61,980 nt of DNA, taken from positions 1 through 61,980 of IMG/VR virus record IMGVR_UViG_3300026290_000012. The stretch is one strand, 5' to 3'. The translations under genes and the position numbers were made by a program. This DNA comes from a virus. The notes beneath the pieces were generated by a model. It ran no database searches and was not told the DNA's origin. It saw nothing but the letters and a program-made list of their open reading frames with translations. Position 1 is the first letter of the stretch. Every line of letters begins with the position of its first letter. Positions 760 through 59,955 of this stretch are shown here, piece after piece.

Positions 760-953
760 CCATAGTCTGTAAGATTAATACATTCACCACAGTGTTCACA
801 TTCTGCCATTTTAACAGTACCAATACCCGTTCCAGTAAAAGTAATGTGAATAGTGGATTGATACTTGTTATCATCAAAGCATCGCTCATGATGCTGGATG
901 AATTGATTAAATTGTGCAAGTTCATTTTCATTGAGTTCTAACATTATCCACAC
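750..953 (-). CDS. small hypothetical protein with C-terminal CxxC knuckle
   Basis: Overlaps the RNR stop; CEHCG motif. Confidence 0.6.
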   Translation of the reverse strand: MWIMLELNENELAQFNQFIQHHERCFDDNKYQSTIHITFTGTGIGTVKMAECEHCGECINLTDYGCW

Positions 954-3532
954 CTACTGTATCCACATGCACACGTAACACATCCTTCAACCATACTCAT
1001 TTTCTCACCACATTCAGGGCAGATATTTGATTTAGTCTTTACTTCTTTCTTACAAGGTATAGGAGAGGGTTCTAAATCCTTATCAGGAATTAGACTCTCT
1101 ATTACTCTTCCTACAACATCTGCACATGACTTTCCATCAGATTTACCTTCAGAGAATTTCTTGTAAGCGACAGGGCAAGTAACATTACGCAGAGTTTTAA
1201 TTATATCCCATGTAGGAACATTCCAACGCATTGCAAGTGAAATCATCTGCCCAAGTGCATCATTCATAGCGGTGCAACCACCTTTGTTGTTTATAATGCA
1301 CTCATACGGCTTGCCGTCCTTCTCTGCAACAGAGATGATTAGTTTGCCACAACCACTACGACGCTTACTATTTGTAGCGGGAAGGTCAGCGGGACGTTTG
1401 GGAAGGATTCTTTCATCGGTAAGTGTTGTTACAGGAGTTGATGTTGATTCTTTCTTTAGTTCCATAACAATATCATTTCTGCTGCCTGTTACGTAAATGG
1501 TAACTCCCTTACACTTTTTCTCATAAGCATAAAGAATTGCACTTCTAATGTCATCTTTAGTAGCGCCTGAAGGCATATTGATAGTCTTACTGATAGCAGC
1601 ATGACAATACTGCTGAAACGCTGCCTGCATGTCAATGTGTGCCTTCCAATCAATGTCTAGTGCGGTTTTGAACACAGATTTAAACTCTACGGGCAACCAT
1701 GTAATATCCTGAATAGTTCCTGTTTCGTAAGCATGATTAACTACTTCCTGTTTCTTCTTATCCCACTGTGTAAATTCACAATGCGTTTCGATATACTCAT
1801 CTAACTTTTCCTCAAATACCGGATCAACCATTAGGTATCCTTTCTTTTCGCCGTCTACCCATGTGTAACGCTTATGCACCAGGGAGAATACAGGTTCAAT
1901 ACCATATGAGGTTTCAGAAAGTGTTGCAATGCTTCCAGTGGGCGCTATGCACGTTGTAGTAGCATTACGCATTGGAATATCTTGTAGGAACCACTGTGAA
2001 CCTTCATAAGCGGGGAATGTTCCAAGTTCTTTTGCAAGTTCACGCGATGTCAAAACAGACATATCATTAAGAATACCCATGACTAATCTTGCCTGATACA
2101 ATGCATCAGAACTATCGTAAGGAATACCCATCTTCATAAGCATGTGATGGAATCCCATGTAACCCAATCCAATCTTACGAGTCTTTTTACTCGCGTCTGC
2201 AATCTCTTCAATAGGATATTTGTTAAGATCAATAATTTTATCAAGAAACTCTGTTGCTTGTTCAATTGTGTTGATTAGTTTTGAAGTATTAAGTTTATCA
2301 TTATCTATGTAGTTAGATAAATTTATACTACCTAGATTACAAGACTCGTAAGGCAGTAGCGGCTCTTCACCACAGTTACGAACTAAAATATCATTTGCAA
2401 AATAATTATGATACTTGTTTACTGTCATACTGTAAACATCTTCTGTATGATCAAGATATTCTACATGATCAACCATTTCTAGTTCTTTAGAGTAATTAAA
2501 TAACTGCCAATTTTTCATTAGATTTTGTGCTTCAATATATCCAATATCACATACAAATATCTTATGTTCGGGTGTGCAAATTATTTCTCTTTTTGTTGTA
2601 ACAATTTTTACTAAACTTGCATTTTCTCGTGTCTTTCTAATATTAAATGCATTATATTCATATATTGGGTATTGCCATGAATTAATATCAACACAATATA
2701 CCTTTACCTTCTTCCCTACAAGTTCTTTAATTGGAATATCACCATTAACAGTTTTAATTAATGTGCTTCCAATTAAACAAGGATTTGTCGCCTCAATATT
2801 ACCAAGATGTTTACAAGTATTTACATCATTGATATAATCGTAAAACAAAACTCCAGGTTCGCCTGTCTTAGAAATTCCATCTACAATTAAATCAAATAAT
2901 TCTTTTGCTCTTACTGTTTTGTAAACTTTACCATTAAAATGAAGATTGTAATCTGAATCATCTTTTACTGCTTTAATAAATTCATTATCAATCATCACTG
3001 AAATATTGAAATTAGAAAGATCACCTTCAGTATTCTTACACGTAATAAATTTCTCAATGTCAGGATGCCAAACAGGGAGAACACCCATATTCGCACCCCT
3101 TCTTTTAGATCCCTGCTTCACAGCATCAGTAGCAGCATTAAACACTTTCATGAAAGAAATAGGGCCGGATGCAACACCATCTGTTCCATTTACTTTATCA
3201 CCTTCAGGTCGAAGATTGCCAAATGAAAAACCCGTGCCTCCAGCAGCCTTATGAATCAATGCTGCATTCTTAATTGCATCAAAGATTCCTTCCATTGAAT
3301 CTGGAACCTTCAAAACAAAACATGCAGAAAGTTGTCCAATACTTGTTCCCGCATTCATCAAAGCAGGTGAATTAGGCACAAAATCTTTATTCACCATCAT
3401 GTCGTAATATATCTCCCTCTCATCATCCGTATTTCCTACATAGTCTGCAACTCTTCTACAAACATCTTCCCAGGATGATTCACCTTCACGAAAATAACGA
3501 GCAGCGAGAACTTCATTAACGATGTCACTCAT
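944..3532 (-). CDS. nrdJ: class II (B12-dependent) ribonucleotide reductase, intein-containing
   Basis: PNSPALMNAG, GGGTGFSF, RRGANMGVL, ATNP|CGEEPL, TCIAPTGS motifs; C-terminal TSCPD-like and Zn-ribbon tail; no small-subunit gene in the window. Confidence 0.92.
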   Translation of the reverse strand: MSDIVNEVLAARYFREGESSWEDVCRRVADYVGNTDDEREIYYDMMVNKDFVPNSPALMNAGTSIGQLSACFVLKVPDSMEGIFDAIKNAALIHKAAGGTGFSFGNLRPEGDKVNGTDGVASGPISFMKVFNAATDAVKQGSKRRGANMGVLPVWHPDIEKFITCKNTEGDLSNFNISVMIDNEFIKAVKDDSDYNLHFNGKVYKTVRAKELFDLIVDGISKTGEPGVLFYDYINDVNTCKHLGNIEATNPCLIGSTLIKTVNGDIPIKELVGKKVKVYCVDINSWQYPIYEYNAFNIRKTRENASLVKIVTTKREIICTPEHKIFVCDIGYIEAQNLMKNWQLFNYSKELEMVDHVEYLDHTEDVYSMTVNKYHNYFANDILVRNCGEEPLLPYESCNLGSINLSNYIDNDKLNTSKLINTIEQATEFLDKIIDLNKYPIEEIADASKKTRKIGLGYMGFHHMLMKMGIPYDSSDALYQARLVMGILNDMSVLTSRELAKELGTFPAYEGSQWFLQDIPMRNATTTCIAPTGSIATLSETSYGIEPVFSLVHKRYTWVDGEKKGYLMVDPVFEEKLDEYIETHCEFTQWDKKKQEVVNHAYETGTIQDITWLPVEFKSVFKTALDIDWKAHIDMQAAFQQYCHAAISKTINMPSGATKDDIRSAILYAYEKKCKGVTIYVTGSRNDIVMELKKESTSTPVTTLTDERILPKRPADLPATNSKRRSGCGKLIISVAEKDGKPYECIINNKGGCTAMNDALGQMISLAMRWNVPTWDIIKTLRNVTCPVAYKKFSEGKSDGKSCADVVGRVIESLIPDKDLEPSPIPCKKEVKTKSNICPECGEKMSMVEGCVTCACGYSRCG
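2375..2779 (-). mobile_element. mini-intein (135 aa, no endonuclease) in RNR
   Basis: Begins CLIGSTLIKTVNG after ATNP; block B-like CTPEHKIF; ends DVYSMTVNKYHNYFANDILVRN followed by Cys+1 of CGEEPL. Confidence 0.92.
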
Positions 3533-20963: not shown

Positions 20964-23486
20964 TTATCTCCTATTTATACCAATCATGAATTTACGTTTA
21001 CCGCGCTTTCCTTTCTCCTTAAACACCGCACTCTTGTTAATCGTCATTCTTACAAGTCCTTCGAGTGCATCAGGAGCATCATCGTGTTTGTGAACCGGGT
21101 ATCGCACTAATTGATTAATCAGTTCAGGATACGCTTCAGTCCAATCATCACGAAACAGGACTTTGCCTGATGTAACAAACGGTTCAACAGATTCAATACG
21201 AATCCGTTTCTTCTTCTGATTCTTAATTTCTTTAATTTTCATGCGCTTACGCATGTCTTTGATTTTATCATTGCGTTCTTTAAGGAATTGAGAAATAAGA
21301 CTCTGGAAACCGTTTGTTTCGATTCCAAGTTCTTCACAATTATAAAAGTTGTAATAATACACCATCTTCTCAATAGAAACATTTGGCGGTGATGTATTAC
21401 TTAACCAACAATCACGCACGTAAAGAACATGGTCTTTGATTGCACCTACTATAATAACGCAAAAATCATTTTCGTTACCAAGTGCCGGATCAACATAGAT
21501 AACATGCCTACAATCCTTGAAGTAAGGATTCTGTGCACGTTCTTGAGGCATTTTCTTTTCAGTGTAATATTGCAAGTTCTCCAGTTTGAATAACTGTGTC
21601 TCAGAGGGTAGCGGTTGGTTTAAATACTGACTTGAAAACTCTACTGCACCTTTCTCAATGCGTAGTGCCTGAATCTTTTGCTCGTTATAAATTGAAGGAT
21701 ACTTTGGATTACCATCTTTATCTACAATGGAATCAATTTCAATATCATAACGCATAAAATCAGGCAATTTTGGATTCTGCTCAATGATTTCGCCGTATAA
21801 TTCTGCGTCGGACCATCTGGTACCTATTACCATTAAAAGACCATCAGGCTCCAAAATGGAGATTAAATCTTTATACCAACGCTTCTTCTGCTCACGAATA
21901 GCAGCAGACTCACGATCTGCGTTATTACAATTTCCTAAAAATACAGTTTTATTATTTCTCCTTACAAATAAAATATGATTAGGAACTTCAACACAATATA
22001 CTTTACCATCGTAATCTGTTTTATACCAATGACATTTTCTTACTTCAGTTTCATTTGTCCCTGGTGATAATTCATGAACCAAATAACATCTATGTCTAAA
22101 TTTTTTACTTTTTGAAAAAGGATTTAAACGCATTCTACTACTAAGTGATGCACATCTTCCTATTTTCAAAACTAACTCTTGTAAGTCATTTGCTAAATAA
22201 GGTGAAGATGTATAATATTCACGATACCCATATTTCAAATATCCATCACCAAGAAAATAACCATTTAAAAAAATATCTATTTGTCTTGGTGATAGGTCTT
22301 TAATAAATTGTGGAACTTTTTTATTAAAGGATTTTGTTCCAAATTGAGCAAGGTATGTTGCTAATTGCGTTGAATGAATTGTGTAATAATTTCTATTACC
22401 ATCCTGATGTGTATAAACTTTATACTCAAAGGGTAATCTTTTAAATAAATCTTCTATAATTTTACATTGTTCTTGATTGACTGTAGGTGATTGACAAATG
22501 CTTACACTATTATAATTTTTTCCACCTCTTGAACTTATATGGCCTTCTGAAATATACCAACCAAGAAATGCAAGAAAATCATCCATCTTAATTTTTACTT
22601 CATCTCTTTTAGCACCATTACCTAAAACCATTTTTGGTAATACAAATGTATCTATTTCTTTACCTTTCCAAACACCACTTTTTTGAAAATAGCCATTTAA
22701 TCCATAAATTTCTTCTGCTGATTCTAACTTATAATCATGTATTGGTGCTGCTCTTCTAAACCAATAATTATGATCAGGTGTTGTAAGAATATCAAGAAAC
22801 TTTTGTTTAACCCCAATCATTTCACCTTTGTAATCTTTCTCAATGTAACGTATTGGTTTTTGATATTCAATTTCATTAGTTTTAGGATTTAATGTAGCGA
22901 CAAGATCAATACCCTTCTCTAAATCCTTAAACAACTTCCAGCCGTTATCTGTAAGAATCTCCGTTTTATCATCATAACATACATCATCACATATGATAAT
23001 ATCATAATGTTCTGACGTTAAAGCAGCAAGAGCACCACGCGCCTTAAGGTTTGGTTCTTTCTTTATAATACGTGGATTTAAAATAATTTCTTGCTGATTC
23101 TCTCTTGTAATGGGATTATCATTTCCAAAGTCAGCAAAGAACTGTTTAATATTTTCATTCTTTGTTAACTGTTCCTTGATTTCAGAAAGAATCTGCTCTG
23201 CTAAGTCATTGGTAGCAGATGTAATGAGAATACGTAAGGTGAACTTTCCATCGTGTTTTACGTAATCATCAAGTAATCTATCAATTACAAAAGAAACATC
23301 ATAGATAGTAGTCTTATAAGTTCCACGCGGTTTCAAGCGCATGATACGTTTGTGAGTCTTGATTGCTTCTTCAAGGTTATCGCACCACTCTTTATGAACA
23401 TCCTCAGTTATTTTCTCGTAACCAAGCATGTATTTTGCAATATTGAAAAGAGTGAGGCGTTTACCATGATAAACAATATTCGACAT
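20964..23486 (-). CDS. terL: terminase large subunit, intein-containing
   Basis: PRGTYKTT Walker A, IIICDD Walker B, VIGTRW, YVDPA, HDDAPDALE nuclease motif. Confidence 0.93.
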   Translation of the reverse strand: MSNIVYHGKRLTLFNIAKYMLGYEKITEDVHKEWCDNLEEAIKTHKRIMRLKPRGTYKTTIYDVSFVIDRLLDDYVKHDGKFTLRILITSATNDLAEQILSEIKEQLTKNENIKQFFADFGNDNPITRENQQEIILNPRIIKKEPNLKARGALAALTSEHYDIIICDDVCYDDKTEILTDNGWKLFKDLEKGIDLVATLNPKTNEIEYQKPIRYIEKDYKGEMIGVKQKFLDILTTPDHNYWFRRAAPIHDYKLESAEEIYGLNGYFQKSGVWKGKEIDTFVLPKMVLGNGAKRDEVKIKMDDFLAFLGWYISEGHISSRGGKNYNSVSICQSPTVNQEQCKIIEDLFKRLPFEYKVYTHQDGNRNYYTIHSTQLATYLAQFGTKSFNKKVPQFIKDLSPRQIDIFLNGYFLGDGYLKYGYREYYTSSPYLANDLQELVLKIGRCASLSSRMRLNPFSKSKKFRHRCYLVHELSPGTNETEVRKCHWYKTDYDGKVYCVEVPNHILFVRRNNKTVFLGNCNNADRESAAIREQKKRWYKDLISILEPDGLLMVIGTRWSDAELYGEIIEQNPKLPDFMRYDIEIDSIVDKDGNPKYPSIYNEQKIQALRIEKGAVEFSSQYLNQPLPSETQLFKLENLQYYTEKKMPQERAQNPYFKDCRHVIYVDPALGNENDFCVIIVGAIKDHVLYVRDCWLSNTSPPNVSIEKMVYYYNFYNCEELGIETNGFQSLISQFLKERNDKIKDMRKRMKIKEIKNQKKKRIRIESVEPFVTSGKVLFRDDWTEAYPELINQLVRYPVHKHDDAPDALEGLVRMTINKSAVFKEKGKRGKRKFMIGINRR
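21930..22979 (-). mobile_element. intein (350 aa) with LAGLIDADG homing endonuclease in TerL
   Basis: Starts CYDDKTEILTDNGW directly after Walker B; LGWYISEG and FLNGYFLGDG motifs; ends VYCVEVPNHILFVRRNNKTVFLGN before Cys+1. Confidence 0.93.
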
Positions 23487-29985: not shown

Positions 29986-29988
29986 AGT

Positions 29989-30031
29989 GTGCTCCACCGT
30001 TTTAGACGTCGGATCAAATCCAGTGGAGCAT
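29989..30031 (+). ncRNA. tRNA-like element 1 (weakest T-arm)
   Basis: GTGCTCCAC/GTGGAGCAT stem, CGT-TTTAG-ACG, GG-ATCAAAT-CC. Confidence 0.55.
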
Positions 30032-30990: not shown

Positions 30991-31036
30991 ACCCTTTTTA
31001 CTCGCAGGTAATGAGATTCGATTCTCAAAAGGGTTT
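30989..31036 (+). ncRNA. tRNA-like element 4 (best copy)
   Basis: AAACCCTTT/AAAGGGTTT, TTAC-TCGCAG-GTAA, TGAGA-TTCGAT-TCTCA, no unpaired linkers. Confidence 0.75.
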
Positions 31037-31062: not shown

Positions 31063-31635
31063 ATGATCATTGAAAGTGACGCAAAACATTTTTCGACACG
31101 TTATGTTGTTGGAAAGTATCGCATTTCGAGCATTCATTTTTTCGATACAAACGGTATTGTATGTGAGACTGATTGGGGATATCTTGAGAACAATGAAAAT
31201 TATATTCATCAGAGAATACCCAGTTTTGAGATTAAGAATCAAGACACTATTAAACTGAAGAGAAAACTTGATTTTAACACAAAAGAGGCATTTCTTTTTG
31301 AATCAAAAAGGGATTGGGATAATGCACTTACAACAAAACTGTATATCCCGTTTATCAAAGAGGATTGGGACATTGAAGAAGTATGGGAAATTGATATTGG
31401 TAATCCATCATTTGAAAATCTATGGAGAAAATTTCACCATAAAGAAAGTAATGCACTCATTAAGGTTAAAATTTCACAGAGAGATACAAAAGAAAAATCA
31501 TATATTGATAATCTCACTGAAATAATGAGATTAACTCATTATGACAAAGAAAATATGAGATTATCACAAAATGATATGGTAAACAACAAAGAACAGATTT
31601 TAGAACTAATGAAAGAGATTCTTAAATCCTCTTAA
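31063..31635 (+). CDS. hypothetical early protein (190 aa)
   Basis: RBS and cluster context. Confidence 0.7.
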   Translation: MIIESDAKHFSTRYVVGKYRISSIHFFDTNGIVCETDWGYLENNENYIHQRIPSFEIKNQDTIKLKRKLDFNTKEAFLFESKRDWDNALTTKLYIPFIKEDWDIEEVWEIDIGNPSFENLWRKFHHKESNALIKVKISQRDTKEKSYIDNLTEIMRLTHYDKENMRLSQNDMVNNKEQILELMKEILKSS

Positions 31636-32992: not shown

Positions 32993-33412
32993 ATGGAGTT
33001 TTCAGACATTTTAAAGCAGTTATGGCACAGTTCTTACTCTGATGCACTAACAGATCCAAAGGTGCATGTATTTGTAGGAAATAGCAGACACATTAGCGTT
33101 TCGCCGTTCTACAATTCAAATTGTGATATGGGTTTTGAAGATGAGAAGAAGTTACTACAAGGTAAGTTAAGGAAGATTAACGAAAATTTGTTTAAGAACT
33201 TTCATTTGCTTTGCTTTACGGAATTGAAAATTGTTCCGAAATTTAAACCTGGTAAAATCATCATATTCAATGAATATGGTGATTTTGTAAACGAACAGCA
33301 TATAAGGAATATACAAAAAATCATTAATGCTAATCCTCTTACAGTATTTAAGGTTAAAACAAAGCAGAATGTTGAATTGAAAGGTAATAATGTAAGAATG
33401 ATAAAGAAATAA
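32993..33412 (+). CDS. hypothetical early protein (139 aa)
   Basis: Operon packing. Confidence 0.65.
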   Translation: MEFSDILKQLWHSSYSDALTDPKVHVFVGNSRHISVSPFYNSNCDMGFEDEKKLLQGKLRKINENLFKNFHLLCFTELKIVPKFKPGKIIIFNEYGDFVNEQHIRNIQKIINANPLTVFKVKTKQNVELKGNNVRMIKK

Positions 33413-41854: not shown

Positions 41855-41992
41855 TTCTCCCGGCAGGATTTGAACCTGCGTCACTGGATTTCTTCAGAGT
41901 GTGACAGGAGTTACCGCCCGTTCAGACCAAATTGTGAGTTTTGCCCACACTCTACCAAAGTCCAGTAGGCTTACCGATTACCCTACGGGAGT
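41855..41992 (-). tRNA. tRNA-Gln(UUG) with 65-nt BHB intron (41890-41954) at position 37/38
   Basis: Cloverleaf; T-arm GCAGG-TTCAAAT-CCTGC; BHB central helix CTTT/GAAG, 3-nt bulges GG|T and AA|A, outer helix AGAGTGTG/CACACTCT; no encoded CCA. Confidence 0.92.
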
Positions 41993-41994
41993 GA

Positions 41995-42077
41995 TGCGTC
42001 AAGCAGGACTCGAACCTGCGATCCCCTACGGGAAGAGATTTTAAGTCTCTCGTCGTTTCCATCTTGACTATTGACGC
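41995..42077 (-). tRNA. tRNA-Leu(UAA)
   Basis: GCGTCAA/TTGACGC acceptor stem, AGAGA-CTTAAAA-TCTCT anticodon arm, long variable arm, GCAGG-TTCGAGT-CCTGC. Confidence 0.95.
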
Positions 42078-54423: not shown

Positions 54424-57321
54424 ATGTATATTGGAGATATTTATATTCCGTATGTTTCGGAATTTTCAGCAAATAAAACCACCAAAGAAAGTAAGGAAAC
54501 TAACTTCATCTCTGGCGATGCTGATCTTGATGAGACTACACCGAAACTGAAAGAACTTACTATAGCGGGTGTTGCAGCAGCATATGGAAGTAAGACTTCG
54601 GATGATTACGCTGATGATCTTGAGGCAGCATTAATACGTAATTCTGCCTACAATATTGTTGAGTATAATAATAAGAAGGGTTACTTTGTCCTTACTGATA
54701 TCGATATACCTGACACAGTAGAGAATCAAAATGCGCGTGAGTTTACTGGAACAGGTAAGTTCCTTCCTGCTGCTCGCTATGAGTGTTCTTACCGTGTAGA
54801 GACTGATTATGTTGATAGTGATTTTGCAATTCAGTTCCCTCCAATCATCGCCCTTCCCACAGGTGCAACCAACGTCAGAATCAAATCGCCTTGGGAAATC
54901 ATGTTTATTGATGAATGGCATGGAACTGTTGGCAGTGATGGTAAAATATCTATATTTAAACCGTTTCCTATTTTTGATGCTGATAACTATGCTATAACAT
55001 CTACAGGCACTAAAACGTTTATGGAGTCTGCCTACGGATGTTTTGTAACAGTGCTCAATGCACAGAATAAGAAAACAGAATGGACTACAACAGTAGGAAC
55101 AGACTTACCTAAAGGACGTTACAAGATTGTATTCCGCTTACAGGATTTGAATGTTGCTGATGATATATCCGTGACCGTAACGGGCAATAAAAGTGGTGAA
55201 TTAATTAATGAAATATTCACAACAGGTAAAACTACATGGACTACCATTGAGACTTCAGAATTTGAGGTTATAACACATGAAACGTTGTCTGTTTCCATAA
55301 AGAAGGTAAAAGCAACAACTAATACAATCAATGTAAACTATGGATTTATTCTTCCCACCTATACTGCAAAGGTAGTATTTGAGAATGATACTGAAGTAGA
55401 TTGTGGTAATGTCAAGGTGTTTGACACCAATGGTTCTACAACTGAATCTGAATGGAAACAAGTGTTTAATTACAACCATGATTTCTCTACGGGTATAGTA
55501 ATTCAAAACTCATTTTTCCGTTGGCATGTGGATACAAATGAGGTTTGGGATAATACAGGTGAGTTAACCAATCTCATCAATAATCAGGTAGGAAGATTAT
55601 ATCCACGTGCATTTAAGAACAATGATGTCAGTTACATTGTGAAGGAGATTCGTCCTGATCTAGTTGAGATTGAGTTCTCCCTGTTTGATGGTGAGTCAGA
55701 TGCAGGTGCAACAGATTGTAGAGAGATAGTTCTTGCTCGTTTCACTCCGTTGTATGTTACTTTTGAATTAATTCGTAATGGAACATTTAAATGGGATTGG
55801 CATGTTGATTTCAGCACTATGCCTTCATGGAAGGCGATTAGTGCGCCTTCTGATTTAATGGTAACATCATCGTTAGCAAACACTGAACATACAAGTGAGA
55901 ATGGTATCTTTACAGTAATATTTGATGAGTGTATTGCAGGTATTTGTAAATCAAAGAATAGTAGTGCATTAGTGCTTGGTGAAGGTGGATTATATGTAAA
56001 TAATACTGCTGAATCGGGTAACTTTATGTTTACACTTTTTATGATTTCTGGTTCCCTGGGTTCAGAGTATATATTCCAAAATACTACTGATGTTACATTA
56101 TCAAACGTGCAGTCTAATAGGATATTTGATAATTTTGTTGTTGATTCTTCTGCTGAATATGATGTAGAAAATGGTAGTAATTTTACTGAAACGTATGCAT
56201 ATTCAACAAGGGGTTTAAGAATAAAAAGCGACAATGAAAAATTAATTACAAAAAAATTAAAGAATTTAAAACTGGGAACAGGCAATTATCAAATGGAAAT
56301 TCAAATACAGTCTACAAAAAGTGTTACAAGAGAAGCGGGTTTAATAATTGCTGGTGATCCTAATTTTAATAATACATATTATGTTTGTTGTTTAGAACTT
56401 GATGCATCACAACCTAATGGTGGTAATAAATCTAAAGTTAAACTGCTCAAATTTAAACAGAATCAAAATAGTCAAGGTTCTTATGGCACTAATGGTTACG
56501 GCAAATATGGTTATGGTGCAGATGGTAGTGAAGTAGTTGCTGCTTCTAAAACTATTGAAGCGGTTTCAGGTGGCATTTATAATATTGATTGTGATTATAA
56601 TAATGAAGAACGCTCTTTCAAAATATATTTTTATAGTGTTTTTGTTGACAAACCCACAATACCCACAATTACTTATATTGGCGATGAAACATTTGAATAT
56701 GGTAATGTTGGTTTATTTGTTCGTTCTTCTAGTGTTGGTATAGGTAATGTTGATGTTGTATTTTGGGAAATGAAAGTAACCGATTCAATGATTTATGAAA
56801 AGGCTGGTTATCCATTTACAGTTCTTGCAGGCACAACACATGGTGGTTCAATTGGTTCACAAACAATAACTATTTTTGATGGTATAATTGGAGAGGATAT
56901 AGATATTGGACGTTACAATTTAATTGTTCAGACTATTTCTACAAGTACAGCAAGTGAACTTACATTTTCATTTGTTAATGCAACAGATTCTACAACATTA
57001 GCCATTGATACATCTGCAAAAAGTGAAACAATCGGTGGTGATGCAGTATTAACGTCATATAATCATGTAATTGAATTTAAAGAATCTGATATTGGTGATA
57101 ATGCACGCATTTATTTAAGTAATACAATCAGTGGTTATTATCCTTTAACATTAATTACTTATGCTGCACTCATTCCTGTATCAAATATAGAAGGTAGTGA
57201 AATTATAACACCAACAAATCTTTCCTTTGCATCGTTTAATGAACAAAACTATTACAGAAATCTTGAACCTAAAGAATTTGGTTCAAATCTGTTAAATAGA
57301 AAGTATAAATCATACAGGTGA
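54424..57321 (+). CDS. large tail-tip protein with beta-sandwich/carbohydrate-binding-like modules (paralog 1)
   Basis: N-terminus MYIGDIYIP and several blocks shared with 58120..59955. Confidence 0.6.
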   Translation: MYIGDIYIPYVSEFSANKTTKESKETNFISGDADLDETTPKLKELTIAGVAAAYGSKTSDDYADDLEAALIRNSAYNIVEYNNKKGYFVLTDIDIPDTVENQNAREFTGTGKFLPAARYECSYRVETDYVDSDFAIQFPPIIALPTGATNVRIKSPWEIMFIDEWHGTVGSDGKISIFKPFPIFDADNYAITSTGTKTFMESAYGCFVTVLNAQNKKTEWTTTVGTDLPKGRYKIVFRLQDLNVADDISVTVTGNKSGELINEIFTTGKTTWTTIETSEFEVITHETLSVSIKKVKATTNTINVNYGFILPTYTAKVVFENDTEVDCGNVKVFDTNGSTTESEWKQVFNYNHDFSTGIVIQNSFFRWHVDTNEVWDNTGELTNLINNQVGRLYPRAFKNNDVSYIVKEIRPDLVEIEFSLFDGESDAGATDCREIVLARFTPLYVTFELIRNGTFKWDWHVDFSTMPSWKAISAPSDLMVTSSLANTEHTSENGIFTVIFDECIAGICKSKNSSALVLGEGGLYVNNTAESGNFMFTLFMISGSLGSEYIFQNTTDVTLSNVQSNRIFDNFVVDSSAEYDVENGSNFTETYAYSTRGLRIKSDNEKLITKKLKNLKLGTGNYQMEIQIQSTKSVTREAGLIIAGDPNFNNTYYVCCLELDASQPNGGNKSKVKLLKFKQNQNSQGSYGTNGYGKYGYGADGSEVVAASKTIEAVSGGIYNIDCDYNNEERSFKIYFYSVFVDKPTIPTITYIGDETFEYGNVGLFVRSSSVGIGNVDVVFWEMKVTDSMIYEKAGYPFTVLAGTTHGGSIGSQTITIFDGIIGEDIDIGRYNLIVQTISTSTASELTFSFVNATDSTTLAIDTSAKSETIGGDAVLTSYNHVIEFKESDIGDNARIYLSNTISGYYPLTLITYAALIPVSNIEGSEIITPTNLSFASFNEQNYYRNLEPKEFGSNLLNRKYKSYR

Positions 57322-57327
57322 TTAAAC

Positions 57328-57945
57328 ATGGTAAGTACTTATACTCCAAAATTGAATTTAGCAAAACCTGCTCATGGTGATGTTGATTGGCATATTCCGG
57401 TTAATGGAAATTGGGATAAGATTGATACTGAATTAGATAAAGCATTAAAAATAAGTGGAACGACGATTGATGCGGACAAGGACTGGGGCGGGAAGAACAT
57501 CACGAACGTTGGGATCATCACAGGCCGTGGTTTACAAGCCACGCAGAAAAAGTCGTACGCCGCGTCAGATACAGTGATCCACACCGTGTCCGGTCAGGTG
57601 GGCGCACAGACCGAATCGCCGAAGACAACCCACACGGCCACAGTACCACCGGGGTATATGACCTCAAAATTCCGGGTTAAGTTCGACTATCGCGGGCCCG
57701 GTGGGCGGCTCTGTTATGCCCGGCTTCTCCGGAATGGGCGACAGGTGGGGCCCCTGGCGGTCGCTACCGACGCCTCCTGGGCGACCTACTCGGTTGATCT
57801 CGATGACGTCGAACCCGGAACGGTATTCCAGGTTCAAGCATGGGCCGCGAGTTACGGAGACACTTCGTACACCCGCGACCTCCGGATCTGCGGGGAGGTG
57901 GAAACATATATCCGTACCATCGGATCGTCCGATGTAATGTGGTGA
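57328..57945 (+). CDS. short tail fibre/receptor-binding protein with chimeric GC-rich C-terminus
   Basis: YTPKLNLAKP..W..PVN.NWDKID anchor motif; abrupt GC shift near 57465. Confidence 0.65.
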   Translation: MVSTYTPKLNLAKPAHGDVDWHIPVNGNWDKIDTELDKALKISGTTIDADKDWGGKNITNVGIITGRGLQATQKKSYAASDTVIHTVSGQVGAQTESPKTTHTATVPPGYMTSKFRVKFDYRGPGGRLCYARLLRNGRQVGPLAVATDASWATYSVDLDDVEPGTVFQVQAWAASYGDTSYTRDLRICGEVETYIRTIGSSDVMW

Positions 57946-57946
57946 G

Positions 57947-58020
57947 GTCCTAGAGGCTGATCCAGAACAACAAGGATTGAAACTCCTGGCTGGCGCGTGG
58001 TAATTTCTCTCACACGACTG
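57947..58020 (+). CRISPR. solitary 37-nt CRISPR-like repeat plus 37-nt putative spacer
   Basis: GTCCTAGAGGCTGATCCAGAACAACAAGGATTGAAAC (57947-57983) has a GATCC/GGATT hairpin and a 3' ATTGAAAC handle; no second full repeat and no cas genes. Confidence 0.7.
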
Positions 58021-58036
58021 GTTCCAAATCGAGGAC

Positions 58037-58080
58037 GGAGCAGGTATGCATACAATCGTATACATAACCCCGGCTCCTTT
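58037..58080 (+). terminator. long hairpin plus short T-tract after the CRISPR-like unit
   Basis: GGAGC..ATGCATAC-AATC-GTATACAT..GCTCC followed by TTT. Confidence 0.5.
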
Positions 58081-58119
58081 AAATTATAATTCGTCTAAAA
58101 ATAATAAAAAGGTGTTACA

Positions 58120-59955
58120 ATGTATATAGGTGATATTTATTTACCAATTCTTTCCAACATTGATAAGAAATCTGTCTCGAAGATTACCAAAGAGATTGCA
58201 GGTATTAACGCTAAAGAACCGAGAACTGTTTCCATTCGTAGGAATCTGCAACCTATTACTCTTGAAGGTTATCTTTACAATGATGGTGAAAAGGATGATG
58301 CACAATACGCAGAAGATGTAGAAGCATTACAGTATCGTTCTGCTGGATATTGCTACACGAAATATGCAGACTTAGATGGTTTCATTGAGATTGAAAATGC
58401 TGAGGCACCACAGACTTCAGAGGAGTTAGGTGTAAGGAATTATTCAGTGGAAGGAAAGTATCTTCCTGCGAGCAAATATGAGCGTGTAGTGGAAGTGGAA
58501 ACAGAAATGCGTGAGAATGAATTTAATATAGAGTTCCCTCCGCATGTTGCTCTTCCCGTGGGCGCTACAAATGTAAGAGTCAAGACTTCGCAGGATAGTG
58601 TGAAGTTAACTGCACCTGCATTCATGGCAGGAGATATACCGATTTATAGACCGTTCCCTGCATTCTATCCTGATGATGTTACGCATTCAACAGGTGATAC
58701 TCCGAAGTATGATACTACGGCGTATAAGATGTCTTACAACTTACTCGATGCAAAGGATGAATATATTTCTTACACGTTTGTATCGGGTGTGGATGTCCCT
58801 CTTGGTTCTTACCGTGTAGTCTTACGCATGAAGAGTGACACTACAATCGCATCAGACGCACGTATCGTTGTTTTAAGCGGGGATAATGTTGTGGTAGATG
58901 ATTTGTATACCTTTGAAGGTAATGATGAAGAAACTGATGTTTTAAATGAAGGAAAATGGTTATTTTCGACTAATGAATCATTGCATGATCTTATAACTAC
59001 AATAACATCATTGGACAATACAGTTAATTTACGCGCAACATCTATGTTTGAAGATAGTCCACATTCACATATATTAATAACTGATGAAAATCAACCGATA
59101 AGTGGTGAATGGACTATTGTTAAAACTAAACCGTTCAATATTACACAAAAGGGTTTAACGTATACAATCAAAGTTCAAAAAGAAACTGATGATTTATCTA
59201 ATATTGCAGTTAACTATGGATTTCTCTTACCCGAAAAGAGAGCACGTGTTGCATTTGATGTAGGAGGAGAATATAATGTAGGTGAGTGTAAGGTATTTGA
59301 TACTATTACTACGGGTTCTGAAGAATCCGAATGGAAGCAGATTTATAATCCTGAACATGACTTTGTAGGTGACATTGTTGTTCAGAACCCTATAATGCGG
59401 TGGGTAATTAAACAGACTACCTGGAAAAATGCTAAACTCTTTAGTATATCAAACAACAATGTATTTGAAGTTGGTTCTTTTTACAATAAAGCGTTTGGTG
59501 ATAATCGTGTTATAATCAAGTTTAAAGAAATTAAACCTAATTACCTGAAGTTCACTTTCGAGTTAGATACAGGTAATGCAACCTCAATGTCTACAAGTGC
59601 AAAAGAATATGACACAGTAGAAGTTACACCATTTAATTTCATCATCAAAAAAGACATCATTGGTAATTTTAAAAATCATTATACTATAGAAACTGATTCT
59701 AAATTAATCATGGAAAAGGATAATGGTATTATTGTATTATTTGAACCAACTTTTGTTGGTGGTTTAATTAAATCTCATGATTTTGTAAGTGGGATTAATA
59801 ATGGTATTATTGAAACAACAAATAGTGTTACGGGTAATTCATATGTAATTCCTTTTGTTATTCCCCTTGAGGATAATAATACAATTAACTCACAAGATTT
59901 GGTTTTTCTTAGTACTGTTTATTCTTCGCAAAAATGTAAAGTTGAAGTAAAATAA
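58120..59955 (+). CDS. tail-tip protein (paralog 2)
   Basis: MYIGDIYLP, GKYLPA.KYE, FPPHVALPVGATNVRVK, GECKVFD..SEWKQIYN..HDF..IVVQN shared with paralog 1. Confidence 0.6.
   Translation: MYIGDIYLPILSNIDKKSVSKITKEIAGINAKEPRTVSIRRNLQPITLEGYLYNDGEKDDAQYAEDVEALQYRSAGYCYTKYADLDGFIEIENAEAPQTSEELGVRNYSVEGKYLPASKYERVVEVETEMRENEFNIEFPPHVALPVGATNVRVKTSQDSVKLTAPAFMAGDIPIYRPFPAFYPDDVTHSTGDTPKYDTTAYKMSYNLLDAKDEYISYTFVSGVDVPLGSYRVVLRMKSDTTIASDARIVVLSGDNVVVDDLYTFEGNDEETDVLNEGKWLFSTNESLHDLITTITSLDNTVNLRATSMFEDSPHSHILITDENQPISGEWTIVKTKPFNITQKGLTYTIKVQKETDDLSNIAVNYGFLLPEKRARVAFDVGGEYNVGECKVFDTITTGSEESEWKQIYNPEHDFVGDIVVQNPIMRWVIKQTTWKNAKLFSISNNNVFEVGSFYNKAFGDNRVIIKFKEIKPNYLKFTFELDTGNATSMSTSAKEYDTVEVTPFNFIIKKDIIGNFKNHYTIETDSKLIMEKDNGIIVLFEPTFVGGLIKSHDFVSGINNGIIETTNSVTGNSYVIPFVIPLEDNNTINSQDLVFLSTVYSSQKCKVEVK

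Follow-up and report, generated by a model that had tools for sequence, protein, structure and literature searches.

Why does a tailed virus carry a single CRISPR repeat directly behind the stop codon of a tail-fibre gene, and what might this repeat do in the infected cell? The question is raised by the virus record IMGVR_UViG_3300026290_000012 of IMG/VR, the whole of which (61,980 bp, about 36% GC) was analysed and is called the window here. The virus is a siphovirus-like tailed virus, and its gene content includes a family-B DNA polymerase, a ribonucleotide reductase, a terminase, a tail tube protein and a tape measure protein. No cas domain was found among the 16 larger open reading frames of the window that were profile-scanned. 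The genes of the ribonucleotide reductase (944–3532, minus strand) and the large terminase (20964–23486, minus strand) contain intein-type inserts with Intein_splicing and LAGLIDADG_3 matches, and two adjacent tRNA genes, one of which is 138 nt long and probably intron-bearing, are located at 41855–42077 on the minus strand. In bacteria, solitary repeats of viruses are well established as a means of evading CRISPR, and Faure et al. reportedly dealt with solitary repeat units and RNA anti-CRISPRs in 2019. To our knowledge, the conflicts between methanogens and their viruses have barely been studied.

The repeat occupies positions 57947–57983 of the plus strand and consists of 37 nt, GTCCTAGAGGCTGATCCAGAACAACAAGGATTGAAAC. 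It is intergenic, positioned between the open reading frames at 57328–57945 and 58120–59955, and a single G at 57946 separates it from the TGA stop codon of the fibre gene (57943–57945, plus strand). The Rfam family CRISPR-DR7 (RF01320) covers positions 1–37 of the 37 positions of the repeat with 37.9 bits, the gathering score being 37, and the E-value of the match is 5e-6 on 601 nt and 5e-4 on the whole window. In the consensus structure of CRISPR-DR7, the 5-bp stem GAUCC/GGAUU is formed by 57959–57963 with 57974–57978. Both the coordinates and this structure agree with an initial, sequence-only reading of the locus, which had placed a repeat with a GATCC/GGATT hairpin one nucleotide after the TGA. 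The viral repeat ends with the 8-nt tag ATTGAAAC (57976–57983), and the cut site of Cas6b is predicted between 57975 and 57976. The repeat had been called solitary, and it is indeed single-copy in the window at up to three mismatches, a cut-off at which shuffled sequences gave no match. The description as a bounded repeat-spacer unit did not hold. A degenerate second repeat downstream of the proposed 37-nt spacer was considered and found no support, since 285 of 2000 shuffles scored as repeat-like as the following 37 nt. What the virus carries is a solitary repeat unit, not a repeat-spacer-repeat array.

A stretch of guide length does follow the repeat, as had been proposed; the spacer of 37 nt originally assigned to it extends to 58020, and its last four nucleotides do not belong to the unit. 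These four and the next 16 nt make up ACTGGTTCCAAATCGAGGAC (20 nt, 58017–58036, plus strand), a native flank of the hairpin downstream that is also present in L064, a 42.7-kb IMG/VR virus of 63% GC with a homologous fibre gene and without the repeat. Since L064 has ACTGGTTCCAAATCGAGGAC and the same hairpin after a different untranslated stretch, only the repeat and the 33 nt at 57984–58016 (plus strand) are private to the repeat-bearing cassettes, all nine copies of which have identical sequences in these 33 nt. The strong hairpin noticed behind the stretch was borne out by folding. It is located at 58037–58077 (plus strand), with a free energy of -15.8 kcal/mol and a z-score of -3.6. The RNA structure of the region 57930–58095 as a whole is as stable as that of shuffles (z 0.09), and the terminal hairpin alone exceeds them. 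The hairpin is conserved behind homologous fibre genes, whether or not a repeat intervenes (L031-33, L056-58, L063 and L064), and it is likely both a terminator and the right-hand arm of a cassette exchange. Its core, GGTATGCATA..AT.GTAT.CATAAC, was observed after homologous fibre genes in viruses of 36–40% and of 62–63% GC.

The source of the repeat was sought in chromosomal CRISPR arrays. A search of one genome per prokaryotic species, in which the 25-nt 3′ part of the repeat was the query, gave matches in two places, an array of a Methanofollis MAG and an array of a Syntrophobacter MAG. The Methanofollis array is located at a contig end, and its full repeat is identical to the viral repeat at 35 of 37 positions; the differences are confined to repeat positions 4–5, and neither the stem nor the 8-nt tag is affected. 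The Syntrophobacter array (L002, CAXXDT010000014, on a 950-kb contig) contains at least 81 repeats, which match at 31 of 37 positions and have the same stem and AUUGAAAC tag. It could mean that syntrophic partners share a I-B repeat family across domains, or it could stem from the binning. A search of 401 genomes of the same archaeal class gave 72 repeat copies at 34/37 in genome G285, which an exact protein match identified as Methanoculleus sp. UBA303, and 12 copies in another genome. The viral repeat shares its 37-nt length, stem and AUUGAAAC tag with CRISPR-DR7 and with the Methanomicrobiales I-B arrays of Methanoculleus sp. UBA303 and the Methanofollis sp. MAG (34–35/37), whereas the viral unit is present in one copy, without a leader, and on a virus. 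Judged by these likenesses, the viral repeat belongs to the methanogen class 1 (type I-B) repeat family, to which it had been assigned in the initial reading. In a Methanomicrobia genome (L017, G037:C1:668117-668147), a single repeat of this family was observed in the chromosome, with an AT-rich, leader-like stretch with TATA-like boxes upstream and no array downstream; this locus may be an empty or collapsed array.

Methanoculleus sp. UBA303 has a complete type I-B system, in which the operon cas6b-cas1-cas4-cas8b-cas7-cas5-cas3 is followed by the array. The cas6b gene, an open reading frame for 228 residues at L062:5603-6289, was detected with the Cas6b models of PADLOC and was missed by PF01881. 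The spacers of the array (L028, G285:C46) are 33–40 nt long, about half of the 71 are below 42% GC, and AT-rich viruses appear to be a main enemy of this methanogen of about 61% GC. At least six array spacers match the virus with one to five mismatches. Spacer 60 has its protospacer at 54440–54473 on the minus strand (33/34 match) and spacer 15 at 31355–31389 on the plus strand (32/35 match), both with a 5′ TTA, and further spacers of UBA303 match at 31001–31033, 55760–55795, 33077–33111 and 29988–30021. The 5′ TTA was found at five of the eight candidate protospacers examined, and TTA is the putative PAM of the UBA303 I-B system. Because the spacers match the virus, the virus is exposed to I-B pressure from a host with this repeat in its array. 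The repeat and the spacers both point to this host, and thus a virus of 36% GC infects a methanogen of about 61% GC. The earlier suggestion that the repeat points to the host has thereby gained independent support from spacers that match the virus and from a genome with Cas6b and a full I-B operon. The host of this 36% GC tailed virus is Methanoculleus, a methane-producing archaeon.

The gene in front of the repeat (57328–57945, plus strand) follows the genes of the tail tube, the tape measure and tail proteins of 349 and 965 residues. Its open reading frame, tail-gene neighbourhood and fold matches identify the product, P0001, as a 205-residue short tail-fibre or receptor-binding protein, which has more than 200 relatives. 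The N-terminal adaptor of the protein is encoded by AT-rich sequence and its C-terminal beta-sandwich tip by GC-rich sequence. In the AF2 model, the C-terminal domain is a beta-sandwich with a pLDDT of about 95, and the top Foldseek matches of the tip are the tip of lambda gpJ, a short-fibre domain of cyanophage A-1(L), and CBM and C1q jelly rolls. The fold of the C-terminal domain, which is modelled with confidence, resembles phage receptor-binding tips and carbohydrate-binding modules. Hypervariable patches of the tip at 57700–57710, 57751–57782 and 57847–57856 have identities down to 53% between flanking blocks of 97–100%; they probably correspond to loops that contact the receptor and evolve under diversifying selection or micro-recombination. 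The variation consists of contiguous multi-base replacements and is not adenine-specific. A DGR variable region with a homing hairpin was rejected, since the window contains no second copy of 57400–58100 and no RVT_1 match was obtained.

The fibre tip, the solitary repeat and the hairpin together form a block of about 600 bp (57470–58075, plus strand) with a GC content of 55–69% within the 36% GC genome. The closest copies of the block are located on contigs of about 54–61% GC (L013-15, L039, L041, L044 and L045), which have the same repeat, downstream stretch and hairpin after the fibre stop codon. The identity to these contigs is 80–100% per 40-nt window, with one hypervariable patch of 53–60%; it begins in-frame behind a conserved adaptor motif, stops just past the hairpin and collapses outside. 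In total, the repeat-bearing cassette is present in nine contigs from several samples. An assembly chimera was rejected as the source of the GC-rich island, and the unit is not an assembly artefact, because identical AT/GC junctions, with AT-rich sequence on both sides, are present in the independent sample L012. AT-rich siblings of the virus carry other fibre tips at this site, some with the hairpin and none with the repeat. These comparisons indicate that a GC-rich fibre-tip cassette was swapped into the 36% GC virus, and that the repeat is the cargo of a mobile receptor-binding cassette that crosses unrelated virus lineages. The PHROG annotation of the GC-rich contigs matched almost nothing, and the contigs are called viral because of their fibre homology and because L064 is an IMG/VR virus. 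As in the swapping of receptor-binding modules by tailed phages, the C-terminal domain is exchanged in-frame behind an adaptor motif and siblings have alternative tips. In contrast to tailed-phage tip exchange, this block has moved across a GC gap of 25 points (about 60% to 36%) and brings along a CRISPR repeat.

The unit itself belongs to a known kind and has been catalogued before. Among the supplementary data of PMC10651486, the SRUFinder output contains a row for IMGVR_UViG_3300026290_000012 (Ga0209510_1000402) at 57947–57983, with the exact sequence and the subtype I-B, and with 100% identity and coverage to the database repeat I-B:64977. The unit is thus already known as a type I-B solitary repeat unit (SRU) and Racr candidate (Camara-Wilpert et al. 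2023, PMC10651486). A comparison with CRISPR repeat databases, which had been suggested together with the sequence-only reading, was positive both in this table and in Rfam, where CRISPR-DR7 matched at the gathering score. SRUFinder defines an SRU by a near-full-length repeat match of high identity, by the absence of further repeats, complete or incomplete, within 100 bp, and by a host with a matching subtype; the viral unit has the repeat match, is solitary, and has a host of matching subtype in the I-B system of UBA303. A virus-borne mini-array would consist of at least two repeats bracketing a spacer that matches a related virus or another mobile element; here, no two repeats bracket a spacer, and the collections searched contained no spacer target. 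Like the SRUs and Racrs of PMC10651486, the unit is a single intergenic repeat of host type on a virus that has no array and whose host has the matching subtype. Unlike the Racrs that were tested, it is of type I-B and archaeal, and it is located in the 3′ untranslated region of a late fibre gene; the Racr paper tested no I-B or archaeal unit, and its main text does not contain the term I-B (PMC10651486). The fibre-linked unit has neither an evident promoter in front of it nor neighbouring acr genes.

Based on the repeat, the host operon and the structure of the transcript, a decoy mechanism can be proposed, which we prefer tentatively and rate as somewhat short of probable: the solitary repeat may give rise to a Cas6b-processed decoy RNA against the type I-B immunity of the host. 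The repeat would be part of the fibre message or would be transcribed from a putative weak TATA-like box about 40 nt upstream. The host Cas6b would bind the GAUCC/GGAUU stem and cut 8 nt before the end of the repeat, and the cleavage would free an RNA with an authentic AUUGAAAC 5′ tag at its start and the hairpin at its end. The 8-nt AUUGAAAC handle, which had been attributed to Cas6 on first reading, is documented for the Cas6b of type I-B systems, which cuts 37-nt repeats so that the AUUGAAAC 5′ tag is left, and the 3′ ends are trimmed (PMC3479195). The 3′ handle of I-B crRNAs is dispensable (PMC4326828). Given this tag chemistry, the 3′ trimming and the dispensable handle, the cleaved transcript would be a crRNA look-alike capped by a hairpin. 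The non-targeting crRNA-like RNA and the Cas6b-bound repeat stub on the mRNA would compete with real crRNAs for Cas6b and for Cas5, Cas7 and Cas8b, which would weaken the I-B interference against the targeted virus. The unit itself travels with the exchanged fibre tip from one virus lineage to others that are unrelated. The sequence-only reading, in which host Cas6 would cut the late mRNA into an RNA that jams or redirects the effector, follows the usual view of such units in the literature. RNA anti-CRISPR activity of SRUs is known from I-F, I-C, I-E and other systems (PMC10651486); in the case of RacrIF1, a tag-less RNA induces an aberrant Cas6f-Cas7f complex, whereas the product predicted here has a full 5′ tag and resembles a crRNA. 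The position behind a late structural gene poorly suits the timing of an anti-CRISPR unless the unit has its own promoter, which is a guess. The repeat is also dispensable, since it is missing from the sister cassettes of L056-58 and L064, which have the same gene end and hairpin.

The variation among the copies bears on the decoy reading and on its strongest alternative. In eight aligned copies, the repeat has four variable sites in 38 nt, among them a broken loop-closing pair in L039 and a change of the tag in L044, whereas the 14 variable sites all spare the 53 nt downstream of it (post hoc P of about 0.02). The substitutions argue against a strict constraint on the repeat, as far as this alignment goes, and the low variation after it hints, weakly, at a role of the RNA downstream. 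A pure decoy would need a conserved repeat and not a conserved downstream stretch, and the observed variation therefore counts against the decoy. The alternative, which we consider unlikely overall yet worth serious attention, is that one repeat-spacer unit was captured once from a host array and has since been copied passively, as an inert passenger, with the exchange of fibre tips. The private insert of 37 + 33 = 70 nt is exactly one period of the host arrays, the spacers of which are 33–40 nt long, and substitutions in the repeat, stem and tag included, are expected of such a passenger. The slot between stop codon and hairpin carries unrelated filler of 19, 54 or 127 nt in sister cassettes; in the GC-rich contigs L056-58, in which the gene end (94%) and the hairpin are shared, 54 unrelated bases replace the repeat unit. 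The post-repeat stretch was also considered as a diverged form of the native 3′ untranslated region of L056-58, and this was rejected because 648 of 5000 shuffles aligned as well. The background divergence of the cassette outside the hypervariable patches is 0–3%, so that the identity of the copies needs no selection, and any exchange that recombines at the adaptor motif and at the hairpin would automatically co-transfer the unit. An inert passenger does not readily explain why the repeat is full-length and starts cleanly 1 nt past the stop codon, why stem and tag are kept in seven of nine copies, why the repeat fits the CRISPR type of the host that targets the virus, or why the 53 nt after it vary less than their surroundings.

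The invariance of the guide-length stretch in all nine copies, in which the repeat and the hairpin vary, would also fit a one-guide mini-array. The Cas6b-cut RNA would then be a working crRNA with an 8-nt tag and a guide of 33–37 nt, trimmed at its 3′ end from the hairpin, which we regard as improbable; to the same low degree we credit the further step that it would direct Cas3, through the Cascade of the host, onto a competing virus, a plasmid or a host locus. A crRNA of type I-B needs its 5′ tag only, as the 3′ handle is dispensable and trimmed, and archaeal virus-borne mini-arrays against related viruses are known, at least from the citation of Medvedeva 2019 in PMC10651486. The mini-arrays of SPV1 and SPV2, in so far as they are described there (Medvedeva et al. 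2019), likewise borrow host repeats without cas genes and have a guide-length stretch after the repeat, whereas here there is one repeat, no target was detected in related viruses, and the spacer does not vary. A search of the stretch against methanogen genomes and viruses had been suggested, and the searches gave no target. Queries with the exact 37-mer and with both of its halves gave no protospacer in IMG/VR, and JGI metagenome contigs contained no target for a seed pattern tolerant at positions 6, 12 and 18, the seven extra hits matching at the fixed positions alone. There was no target in the five array-bearing genomes, one of them bacterial, for a 24-mer at up to three mismatches, and none in 55 genomes of the Methanoculleus family for a 61-nt query, except for one chance match of 23/37 with the wrong flank. 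The phage collection and the sibling and fetched loci likewise contained no target of the post-repeat stretch. These searches cover the named collections, and absence from them is not proof of absence. The second repeat is missing, the repeat-less siblings hold unrelated sequence at the site, and the copies show no turnover of the spacer, all of which speak against a working guide.

A role at the DNA level, in which the repeat would serve for recombination with or integration into host CRISPR arrays or would distract Cas1-Cas2 as a decoy substrate, has been proposed for SRUs by literature quoted in PMC10651486, and the host does have cas1 and cas4, yet we consider it very improbable here, since the sequence upstream is coding and not leader-like, the cassette is absent from 48 Methanoculleus species genomes both as a provirus and in an array, and no array in the fetched data has viral DNA beside a repeat.

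In addition to the catalogue entry, our analysis provides the link to the host, the Cas6b and I-B operon of that host, the TTA motif, the match of the insert to one array period, and the travel of the unit in a fibre-tip cassette across the GC gap. Since the host genus, its Cas6b and I-B operon, the TTA PAM and actual spacers against the virus have been identified, the unit is a well-anchored candidate, and a direct test is feasible. A repeat that moves with a receptor-binding tip between viruses of distant GC content could show how counter-defence elements spread. We speculate, while considering it rather unlikely, that the cassette of about 600 bp is a portable "host-entry kit", in which a receptor-binding tip that determines the Methanoculleus-type host to be entered is coupled with a CRISPR-repeat RNA matched to the I-B system of that host, the repeat being half of the kit and no mere passenger; the use of the adaptor motif and the hairpin as the recombination arms of such a kit is similarly doubtful. 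If the kit exists, unrelated lineages of 63% and 36% GC would gain host range together with the matching immune evasion or a guide by a single exchange. The SRUFinder table that lists the present unit also contains other viral I-B units of the same repeat family. Of two further viral contigs observed, one (L037, IMGVR_UViG_3300010347_000937) carries a solitary intergenic GTCCGAGAAAGAGATCCATAACAACAAGGATTGAAAC of this family, and the other (L038, IMGVR_UViG_3300038652_000467) has a Methanosarcina-like repeat in a mini-array of two or more units.
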